64,000 nucleotides of DNA from Candidatus Rokuibacteriota bacterium (GTDB lineage Bacteria > Methylomirabilota > Methylomirabilia > Rokubacteriales > CSP1-6). The notes beneath the pieces were generated by a model. It did not search any database. It was given only the letters and a program-made list of their open reading frames with translations, and had not been told where the DNA came from. Both the position numbers and the translations under genes were made by a program. The stretch covers positions 32,568 to 96,567 of the forward strand of contig QHSI01000104.1 in NCBI GenBank assembly GCA_003221515.1, given 5' to 3'. Below, one piece after another: positions 57,666 to 60,537 of the stretch (position 1 is its first letter; the number at the start of each line of letters is the position of its first letter).

Positions 57666-60537
57666 TCGGATCGTGATCCGCGGTGCCCGAGAGCACAACC
57701 TCAAGAACATCGACCTCGAGATTCCCCGCGATCAGCTGGTGGTGATCACCGGGCTCTCCGGCTCGGGCAAATCATCGCTCGCCTTCGACACGATCTACGC
57801 GGAAGGCCAGCGTCGCTACGTCGAGTCGCTTTCGGCCTATGCGCGTCAGTTCCTCGAGCAGATGGAAAAGCCGGAGGTGGACTCGATCGAAGGTCTCTCG
57901 CCCGCCATTTCCATAGAGCAGAAGACCACGTCGAAGAATCCCCGCTCGACCGTGGGCACCGTCACCGAGATCTACGACTACCTGCGCGTGCTGTTCGCGC
58001 GGATCGGCGTGCCGCACTGCCCGAGCTGCGATCGTGTGATCGCCGCGCAGACGGTCCAGCAGATGGTCGACCGAGTGCTCGCGCAGCCGTCCGGCACGCG
58101 GCTGCTGGTGCTGGCGCCCGTCATTCGCGGCCGCAAGGGCGAGTACAAGAAGCTCTTCTTCGACCTGCAGCGCCAGGGGTACTCGCGGGTCCGCGTCAAC
58201 GGCACGATCCGTGAGGTTGGCGAGGACATCGAGCTGGATAAGAAACGCAAGCACACGATCGAGGTGGTGGTGGATCGGCTGATCGTGCGCGAGAACCTCG
58301 GCTCACGCCTGGCGGACTCGCTGGAGACCGCCTTACGCCTGGCCGACGGCATCGTCACGGTCGAGACGGTTGACGGAGACGGAGCCACGAGCACCTCCAG
58401 CAGGCCACCCGCGGCCAAAGCCGGTCTCAAGGACCTCGGTACAACAATCAAAGCCGGCCTCAAGGACCTCACCACCACAACCGGCCCCGCCCACACGTTC
58501 TCCGAGAAGCTCGCCTGCGCCGAGTGCGGGATCTCGTTCCCCGAAGTCTCGCCGCGGATGTTCTCGTTCAACAACCCGTACGGCGCCTGCCCGGAGTGTA
58601 GCGGGATCGGCTCGCGCGAGGAGATCGACCCCGACCGGCTCGTACCGAATCCCGCGCGCTCGCTCAAGGACGGCGCGCTGGCGCCGTGGGCGGGGCGCGA
58701 GACGACGTACTTCCGGCAGACGCTTCAGGTGTTGGCGAAGCGGCACCGGTTCTCCCTCGAGACGCCGTGGTCCGAGCTGCGCAAGGGCGTGCGCGAGGTG
58801 ATCCTGCACGGCGAGCGCGACGGCGGATTCGAGGGCGTCGTCAAGACGCTCGAGCGCCGATATCGCGAGACCACGTCGGACGAGGCGCGGTCCGACATCG
58901 AGCTGTTCATGACCGAGCGTGCCTGCCCGGCGTGCAAGGGCTCGCGGCTGCGCCCGGAGTCGCTCGGCGTCAAGGTCGGCGGCCGCTCGATCGCGGACGT
59001 CGTGCGGCAGACCATCAAGGACGCGGGCACGTTCTTCGACGCCCTCACGCTGACCGAGCGGGAGACGGCCATCGCCCGGCGCGTGCTCAAGGAGATCCGC
59101 GAGCGGCTCGGCTTCCTGATGAACGTCGGCCTCGACTACCTGACGCTCGACCGGCCGGCCGGCACGCTGTCGGGCGGCGAAGGGCAGCGGATTCGCCTCG
59201 CGACCCAGATCGGGTCGAGCCTGGTCGGCGTCCTCTATATTCTCGATGAGCCATCGATCGGACTGCATCAGAGGGACAATCGAAGACTGCTCGAGACCCT
59301 GAAGCGCCTTCGTGATCTCGGTAACACGGTGCTCGTCGTGGAGCACGACGAGGAGACGATCCGCTCGGCGGATTATGTTATCGACCTGGGGCCGGGCGCC
59401 GGCGAGCTCGGCGGCCACCTCGTCGCCGTCGGCACCCCCGACGAGATCATGGCGAACGGCGACTCGCTGACCGGGCGCTACCTCGCGCGCGCGATGACGA
59501 TCCCGGTGCCGGCGACTCGGCGCAAGGGCAGCGGCCACTTCATCACGATCCACAACCCGCGCGAGCACAACCTCAAGGGCATGGCGGTGAAGATCCCGCT
59601 CGGGACCTTCACCTCCGTCACCGGCGTGTCGGGCTCGGGCAAGTCGACGCTGGTCAACGACATCCTTTACCGCGCGCTCGCGCAGATGCTGCATCGCGCG
59701 CAGGACCGCCCGGGCGCGCACGACCGGGTCGAGGGCGCGCAGCGGATCGACAAGGTCGTGGACATCGACCAGTCGCCGATCGGCCGCACGCCGCGCTCGA
59801 ACCCGGCGACCTACACCGGCGTGTTCACGTTCATCCGGACGCTGTTCGCGCGGACGCCCGAGGCGCGGATGCGCGGCTACCAGCCCGGCCGGTTCTCGTT
59901 CAACGTCAAGGGCGGGCGCTGCGAGGCCTGCCAGGGTGACGGGCTCGTCAAGATCGAGATGCACTTCTTGCCCGACGTCTACGTGACCTGCGACGTGTGC
60001 AAGGGGCGGCGCTACAACCGCGAGACGCTCGACGTCCACTACAAGGGGATGAGCATCGCCGCGGTCCTGGACATGACCGTGCGCGAAGCGCTGGCGTTCT
60101 TCGACGCGGTGCCCGTGATCAAGTCCAAGCTGGCGACCCTCGACGACGTCGGCCTCGACTACATCCGCCTGGGCCAGTCGGCGACGACCCTGTCGGGCGG
60201 CGAGGCGCAGCGCGTGAAGCTCGCCACCGAGCTCTCGCGACGCGCCACCGGCAAGACGCTCTACATCCTCGACGAGCCGACGACCGGTCTGCACTTCGCG
60301 GACATCCAGAAGCTCCTGGAGGTGCTCAACAAGCTCGTCGATCAGGGCAACACCGTGGTGATCATCGAGCACAACCTCGACGTGGTGAAGACCGCCGACT
60401 GGGTCATCGACCTCGGGCCCGAGGGCGGCGACGACGGCGGCCGCGTGGTGGCCACCGGCACGCCCGAGGAGCTCATCCGTCACCCGGAGCGGACCTATAC
60501 CGGGCAATTCCTGCGACCGCTCTTGACCGGCGCCTGA
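57655..60537 (+). CDS. uvrA: Excinuclease ABC subunit A
   Basis: 960 aa; both ABC modules ([12 protein letters not shown]; [12 protein letters not shown]), zinc-finger cysteines ([28 protein letters not shown]); ~20-27 aa longer than typical UvrA owing to the insert at 58385-58485. Confidence 0.95.
58385..58485 (+). repeat. In-frame copy (with internal ~33-bp partial duplication) of the dispersed repeat core inside the uvrA coding sequence
   Basis: GGAGCCACGAGCACCTCCAGCAGGCCACCCGCGGCCAAAGCCGGTCTCAAGGACCTCGGTACAACAATCAAAGCCGGCCTCAAGGACCTCACCACCACAACC aligns with cores A-D; translates to ...[31 protein letters not shown]... in a region where E. coli UvrA has ~25 fewer residues. Confidence 0.5.

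Follow-up and report, generated by a model that had tools for sequence, protein, structure and literature searches.

A dispersed 66-nucleotide repeat lies in frame within uvrA of a Candidatus Rokuibacteriota genome

In the DNA analyzed here, a 64,000-nucleotide (nt) stretch of contig QHSI01000104.1 from a Candidatus Rokuibacteriota bacterium (hereafter the window), the uvrA gene contains about 100 bp that copy the core of a repeat dispersed through intergenic regions, as the original prediction had claimed. We consider it likely that this stretch represents one copy, together with a 33-nt partial duplicate, of a Rokubacteria-specific, frame-neutral repeat which behaves like both MIRUs and Rickettsia palindromic elements (RPEs), is tolerated in a linker of UvrA, and is unstable there. 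The host gene and the parts of the insert are as follows.

57655-60537, plus strand: uvrA, the host gene, 960 amino acids (aa); an open reading frame (ORF) which aligns to solved UvrA chains and is a 100% match to a database UvrA.
58379-58449, plus strand: full element unit in uvrA, of the 65-nt subfamily (GGAGCC-ACGAGC...GGTACAAC), 23 residues, read in sense frame b.
58450-58482, plus strand: 33-nt partial duplicate of the 3' half of the element (AAAGCCGGCCTCAAGGACCTCACCACCACAACC), 11 residues, recognized by a 21-mer match and by nhmmer.
58378-58485, plus strand: whole extra segment relative to short alleles and to solved UvrA, ~102-108 nt or 34-36 codons with approximate boundaries, from DNA alignment with loci L001 and L005.

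For the window search, an nhmmer profile was made from the intergenic copies A to D only. This profile matched uvrA at 58379-58448 over model positions 2-72 (E = 1.1e-12), and uvrA was the sole strong match in the window besides copies A to D. Positions 58451-58470 were matched to model positions 42-61 as well (E ~0.1). An internal partial duplication of ~33 bp, which had also been predicted, was readily recognized: the two 33-nt stretches at 58417-58449 and 58450-58482 were identical at 27 of 33 positions (counted by eye), and the 21-mer AAAGCCGGYCTCAAGGACCTC was present at 58417 and again at 58450, while 0 of 100 dinucleotide-preserving shuffles matched. Tandem Repeats Finder, at a score of at least 40, left the 33-nt duplication in uvrA unreported; the duplication rests on the sequence, the 21-mer, and nhmmer.

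As anticipated, the insert preserved the reading frame of uvrA, with the ORF open throughout and the insert region corresponding to residues 238-280. The identical database protein is an excinuclease ABC subunit UvrA from a Candidatus Rokuibacteriota metagenome-assembled genome (MAG) and carries the Pfam domains UvrA_inter, UvrA_DNA-bind, and ABC_tran. The peptide EPARxYxRPPSVxAGLxDPAT, seen at the site in relatives, equals sense frame b of the element, a translation also seen in a spurious ORF crossing intergenic copy D, and the composition of the insert suggests a linker rich in Pro, Ser, Thr, Ala, and Lys. UvrA residues 101-333, CxxC motifs included, aligned to solved UvrA chains (E = 1e-69). 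Within this fragment, residues 1-141 paired with chain residues 121-261 and residues 181-232 with chain residues 265-316, so that 39 residues face 3. Because the UvrB-interaction domain constructs 3fpn and 4dfc terminate at the insert point in the alignment to solved structures, the insert is placed by this alignment at the C-terminal edge of the UvrB-binding domain, directly before the CxxC of the zinc module. The predicted location between the UvrB-binding region and the zinc finger was thereby reproduced. In contrast, the statement that Escherichia coli UvrA is ~25 residues shorter proved to be an underestimate, given 39 versus 3 residues in solved chains and an excess of 35 aa over 925-aa relatives.

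A database search returned 120 UvrA relatives, 87-100% identical and 925-1000 aa long, with length variation confined to one site between ...VTVE.. and TFSEKLAC. This site holds 0, 1, 2, or 3 units of the 66-nt (22-codon) element. Most relatives have one unit, read as ..AGAEPARAYSRPPSVKAGLKDPATT.. or ..DGATRASSRPPSAKAGLKDPATT..., P0084 has two, and P0074 has three, encoded at locus L002 by three perfect head-to-tail 66-nt repeats (GGAGCC...GCTACAAT) of 22 codons each. The element core was absent from 30 of the 120 relatives (for example, AVEGGAAH, PQDSSAPT, and APDSKATST at the site). The window UvrA exceeds the shortest close relatives (925 aa) by 35 aa. Alignment to close relatives, which the original prediction had proposed as a check, thus defined the insert: the relatives were either shorter or had other numbers of the same unit. 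Equally long but unrelated sequence was not found at the site among them; they carry the element or its remnants.

In a neighbour-joining tree of the UvrA sequence with the variable site excluded, core-less alleles were dispersed within element-bearing clades. Many of these alleles retain remnants, such as TVDGAEESRTRGKT joined to NPATM beside a full-unit sister. The uvrA genes of P0039 and P0088 differ outside the site by only 7 of 2700 nt (99.7% identical DNA) and at the site by a clean 60-nt indel, in which 51 nt from the 5' side of the element are lost along with the 9 nt preceding it, whereas the 3' end, CCCCGCGACCATG, is retained; seven more substitutions are clustered beside the indel. 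Since such nearly identical genes differ by a core indel, the site is unstable on a very short time scale. Taken together, the uvrA copy is unstable: both the units and short 3' sub-repeats vary in number through expansion and contraction, and close relatives show repeated deletion of the core.

The element has a 66-nt (22-codon) consensus, GGAGCCGGCTCGCrYCTayCTCAGGCCACCCTCGGTnnrAGCCGGCCTCAmGGnCCCCGCTACAAY, and falls genome-wide into two 5'-arm subfamilies, one of 66 nt with GGAGCCGGCTCGC (113 copies) and one of 65 nt with GGAGCC-ACNCGC (27 copies); the uvrA copy of the window belongs to the latter. Copies were sought in one genome per species with the pattern CAGGCCACCCTCG-N7-CCG-NN-CTCA. The scan gave at least 109 stretches, nearly all of them, among the matches listed, in Rokuibacteriota/Methylomirabilota MAGs. 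Matches with other labels were L036, L037, L048, and L053 (Binatia), L027 (Acidobacteriota), and L073 (Actinomycetota). These contigs carry Rokubacteria-like genes, in the case of L053 including uvrA with the insert, and the presence of the element under such labels points to mislabelling or bin contamination. A scan of viral contigs with the core pattern gave zero matches. An element profile identified 169 copies in the retrieved loci, of which 147 were full length. An alignment with 140 distinct copies revealed the conserved blocks CGGAGCC, CAGGCCACCCTCGG, GCCGGCCTCA, and CCCCGCTACAAY(R)A with variable spacers between them, and the uvrA copies, found by protein homology rather than by the scan pattern, keep the same blocks. 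A protein-database search with the three-unit peptide gave 127 candidates and 2 uninformative matches, and no description of a Rokubacteria repeat was found in the literature searched.

The blocks could not be linked to a folded RNA. Rfam at its gathering threshold reported nothing in the window, the RNAalifold consensus of the 140 copies had an energy of only -2.5 kcal/mol with zero covarying pairs, and folds of single copies were no better than those of shuffled sequences (z-scores of -1.4 to +0.9). A hairpin of GGAGCCGGCTCG and CGAGCCGGCCTC was rejected, as its 5' arm varies without compensation and neither RNAalifold nor the single folds find a structure. Two promoter-like readings were likewise discarded: TACAAT as a -10 box is overlapped by the start codon and has no properly spaced -35 box, and a sigma-54-like reading of GGCCAC-N5-GTGCA would place its -12 region in variable sequence.

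Units also occur as arrays, with three 66-nt units in L002, L026, and L039 and two in L090, L109, and L056. Tandem duplications of the final 12-33 nt (CCCCGCTACAAYA...) are frequent in both intergenic and in-gene copies (L005, 1097-1172; L018, 6516-6591; L028, 7239-7314; L040, 1383-1458; L007, 416-491; window, 58417-58482). The 33-nt duplication in the window uvrA is thus one instance of a recurrent tandem duplication of the 3' end.

A survey for further in-frame copies, another of the proposed checks, was made in the retrieved loci by selecting ORFs which span a copy and have a coding-like GC content at third codon positions on both sides, followed by Pfam confirmation. In PheT, the tRNA_synthFbeta domain spans the copy. 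In-frame copies with flanking or spanning Pfam domains were also found in a GNAT acetyltransferase, the HisH amidotransferase, hydantoinases, and a D-glutamate-cyclase-like protein. The linker between membrane and ATPase parts of an ABC exporter holds a single copy in each of L011 and L066 and three copies in L039, all read in antisense. At L034 (5919-7469) and L105 (~5834), an ORF with a ChsH2_C-like OB-fold is joined to a thiolase through the element; this open frame may represent either a genuine fusion or two separate genes prone to being merged by gene callers. Altogether, in-gene copies use the sense frames a, b, and c and the antisense frames a' and c'. Five of the six frames of the element are stop-free; only antisense frame b' always stops (TAG, from CTACAA), and sense frame c closes with TGA or TAA exactly at the element end.

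Most copies were located 5' of genes. The flank downstream of the element was same-strand coding for 106 of 147 copies and opposite-strand coding for 16, whereas the upstream flank was often non-coding. In 42 copies, an ATG or GTG formed from the last bases of the element (...GCTACA followed by ATGA) was in frame with the downstream ORF, and in none was it out of frame. All 42 of these start codons were followed by A, giving NTGA (p = 5e-11 against a background of 56%); examples are window copy C (25121-25192), L021 (6362), L025 (749), and L064 (6173). A further 18 copies had a Shine-Dalgarno-like sequence within 25 nt. In another group, to which copy D before a PIG-L gene belongs, (C/A)GGAG-N6-8 and a start codon come directly after the element, and the first bases of what would be the next unit may act as the Shine-Dalgarno sequence. 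In 70 of 147 copies, frame c closed with TGA, TAA, or TAG at the end of the element, and at L014, L028, L089, L096, L045, L047, L058, and L104 the upstream gene runs into the element in frame c and terminates on the start of the next gene. No ATG, GTG, or TTG conserved in frame c within the unit was found in the alignment of copies. At L028 (7240), L096 (6990), L014 (6429), and L089 (6011), the copy is situated between mutS-like and mutL-like genes, named from their end sequences; read-through of the mutS-like gene in frame c adds ~22 C-terminal residues, with the stop on or next to the mutL-like start.

Small repeats that enter proteins in frame, namely, RPEs (Ogata et al. 2000, as summarised), ERIC, and QMITE1, are reviewed in PMC10969869. 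The likeness to RPEs drawn in the original prediction stood with regard to behavior: the element is short and dispersed, occurs in intergenic DNA as well as in frame within many unrelated housekeeping genes, adds a peptide without destroying the protein, and differs in presence between related genomes. It did not extend further. The element is no palindrome and shows neither a stable nor a conserved hairpin, its unit is 66 nt versus ~100-150 nt for RPEs, and it forms head-to-tail arrays. Moreover, most copies abut start codons, so that its main habitat is 5' of genes with an NTGA overlap, as for MIRUs. The host phylum and the GC-rich consensus set it apart from RPEs as well, a distinction made without direct sequence comparison. 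Like MITE, ERIC, and QMITE repeats (PMC10969869), it is small, non-autonomous, and able to make in-frame fusions to host ORFs. Unlike in MITEs, its two termini, GGAGCC... and ...GCTACAAY, do not form an inverted repeat, target-site duplications were not seen, and no parent insertion sequence was identified.

REPs are palindromes of 20-40 nt, usually arranged as inverted pairs downstream of genes, and are mobilized by RAYT transposases. The element shares with REPs and REPINs its high copy number, mostly intergenic location, and short GC-rich sequence, but it has no structure, precedes genes in sense orientation, and forms direct tandems rather than inverted pairs. MIRUs insert at start codons, with the ORF of the repeat coupled to the gene at a -4 spacing (PMC12548453). 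Like these, the element is a unit of tens of bases in tandem arrays of variable copy number, which at one locus differs between relatives; it has the same orientation as the flanking genes and is located at gene starts, where the stop of an internal frame overlaps the downstream start (ATGA, -4), so that expression need not suffer. Unlike in MIRUs, no start codon or Shine-Dalgarno sequence was identified for the internal ORF, and copies also occur in frame inside proteins and in antisense. The phylum differs too, and the likeness is an analogy of behavior, not the result of sequence comparison. The details of MIRUs reportedly go back to Supply and coworkers in 1997.

Under the explanation that we favor, the element would avoid frame breakage by design, through a length that is a multiple of three, five stop-free frames, and a frame c stop at its end. 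Its usual site would be directly 5' of a gene in sense orientation, where the start codon overlaps the element end as NTGA. Because of this overlap, an ORF reading through the element could stop on the start codon and hand on the ribosome, that is, provide translational coupling, which is presumably the reason for the NTGA end. Occasionally, a copy would land inside a gene, and solely in-frame copies in tolerant places would survive. The UvrA peptide would accordingly represent a tolerated passenger, and dispersal and polymorphism argue that the element is or was mobile.

Several observations weigh against this explanation. No transposase, terminal inverted repeats, or target-site duplication was found for the element, and comparison of filled with short uvrA alleles defined neither a terminal inverted repeat nor a target-site duplication. 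Among uvrA orthologues, identity is 73-91% over the 3' 45 nt of the element versus 59-69% at 4-fold degenerate sites, and orthologous copy D retains the same blocks across species. Since a neutral passenger inserted once long ago should have decayed more, in-gene copies are not decaying neutrally, and some constraint, gene conversion, or re-insertion is also at work; the observed pattern of conservation would follow alike from selection for a motif in DNA or RNA, from gene conversion, or from re-insertion. In addition, the genome scan was seeded with the central blocks and its tally is a lower bound (at least 109), so that counts and block invariance are biased. Finally, exposure of the insert to solvent is presumed from the alignment to solved structures, because an AlphaFold2 model of UvrA, with 50 close relatives as alignment, was unusable (mean pLDDT of 39.7).

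We weighed several other explanations. The genome is GC-rich and the insert peptide compositionally simple, which would fit a chance resemblance between uvrA and the intergenic copies through low-complexity sequence. However, with a full-model E value of 1e-12, shuffled sequence without matches, and relatives which hold canonical 66-nt units at the uvrA site, up to three in tandem, such a coincidence has next to no probability. The same holds, to our judgment, for a mis-joining of repeat reads into uvrA during assembly or binning. Repeats are prone to mis-assembly and the source is a MAG, but the same or nearly the same 960-aa protein was present in NCBI, JGI, and ENA assemblies (P0001-P0003), near-identical UvrA versions were recovered from other samples, and dozens of independent assemblies have the element at exactly the same uvrA site, always in frame. 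A quite possible course of events, though short of probable, is that the uvrA site is a hot spot, where the element arrived repeatedly or where conversion by copies elsewhere in the genome overwrote the sequence. This would refine the favored explanation rather than replace it. Both 5'-arm subfamilies occur in uvrA, with 43 proteins of the type 'AEPARAY' and 47 of the type 'GATSAS', the window copy among the latter, a pattern suggestive of multiple acquisitions or of conversion. The two types differ in the codon phase of the 5' junction, and therefore a single indel cannot interconvert them; the types of P0022 and P0080 are misplaced in the UvrA tree, and the substitutions around the P0039/P0088 indel are clustered. 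On the other hand, the 3' junction and the downstream residues are common to both types, short alleles retain remnants as deletion would leave, and the data are too few for dating events.

Selection could also have kept the element, if its blocks were a functional cis-element bound by protein or RNA, or if the peptide were a useful linker of UvrA, in either case domesticated. The identity of the element in uvrA, above that of 4-fold sites (0.73-0.91 versus 0.59-0.69), and the persistence of the copy D blocks across species while the spacers between them vary would agree with this, and blocks that do not change with orientation or frame argue for the DNA or RNA level rather than the peptide. 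Nevertheless, we regard it as improbable: the core was lost repeatedly at the uvrA site, even between alleles of 99.7% identity, its absence from 30 of 120 relatives makes it dispensable for UvrA, RNA structure and covariation were absent, and gene conversion among many copies or re-insertion gives the same conservation. A bolder and rather unlikely idea regards the element as a genome-wide, sequence-constrained "coupling cassette," whose blocks are recognized by a dedicated protein or RNA, which is targeted to start codons, and which delivers ribosomes via NTGA; the same recognition would drive gain, loss, and homogenization in proteins such as UvrA. If true, the cassette would be a start-codon-targeted, frame-neutral mobile element without a known type of transposase, through which an uncultivated soil lineage varies the length of its housekeeping proteins in a programmed manner.

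The element extends the occurrence of repeat DNA inside proteins from obligately intracellular Rickettsia to a free-living, uncultivated soil lineage with large genomes, and adds a central DNA repair protein to the hosts of in-frame repeats. It joins two behaviors usually described apart, RPE-like in-frame insertion and MIRU-like coupling to start codons, and accounts for why Rokubacteria proteins vary in length. With five open frames in the element, annotation errors are likely, such as N-terminal extensions, fused ORFs, and spurious ORFs across arrays. Its copy number polymorphism could serve as a strain marker in metagenomes, and uvrA alleles with 0-3 units represent a natural test of tolerance at the boundary of the UvrB-binding domain.

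The intergenic copies in the window, and the tandem arrays directly 5' of three of them, are located as follows.

12552-12625, plus strand: copy A, between two ABC-permease-like ORFs; ends in TACAATAA, with a TTG start 6 nt on.
19898-19970, plus strand: copy B, antisense to both flanking minus-strand genes.
25121-25192, plus strand: copy C, whose end, TATACAATGA, supplies or overlaps the ATG of a downstream LivH-like permease.
55654-55727, minus strand: copy D, 5' of a PIG-L family gene, followed by GGAGG-N7-GTG.
55709-55895, minus strand: 36-nt partial-unit array of 5.1 copies, immediately 5' of copy D, whose units repeat ~16 nt from the start of the element (Tandem Repeats Finder).
24933-25137, plus strand: 42-nt tandem array of 4.9 copies, directly 5' of copy C (Tandem Repeats Finder).
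19862-19902, plus strand: 21-nt tandem duplication, directly 5' of copy B (Tandem Repeats Finder).

Copy D is kept at the orthologous position in L001 (1981-2049), L004 (913-981), L005 (1102-1170), and L006 (8092-8158). Partial-unit arrays comparable to those of the window appear in other loci as repeated peptides in frame c.

The N terminus of the ORF at 18524-19867 had been proposed as a second in-frame copy. This was not established, as copy B is antisense to the gene and ~30 nt upstream of it. One antisense frame of copy B is open from the stop of the upstream gene into an ORF at 18524-19978, so that translation of copy B in frame with the ORF at 18524-19867 is conceivable from the sequence. 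The longer ORF, on the minus strand, begins 3 nt past the stop codon that ends the upstream gene. Its frame runs across copy B in antisense (CCNGDREAGLNRGWPEIDARG) and across a 7-codon duplication, beyond which a segment TTRRLLVLL...AHA resembles a Tat- or Sec-type signal peptide.

The window also contains repeats of other kinds. G-rich intergenic inverted repeats, unrelated to the 66-nt element, were present at 24568-24723, 41599-41755, and 45131-45596, their 38-76-nt arms showing 82-100% complementarity and a separation of 59-172 nt. In the region from 1 to 45000, most large direct repeat families are paralogous coding sequences rather than repeat elements; judged from conserved motifs, these are probably genes for branched-chain amino acid ABC transporters and acyl-CoA dehydrogenases. 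A 50-nt tandem repeat at 54112-54220 (2.2 copies, 96% identity) is less GC-rich than its surroundings and is located 338 nt upstream of the low end (stop codon) of the minus-strand ORF at 54557-55075.

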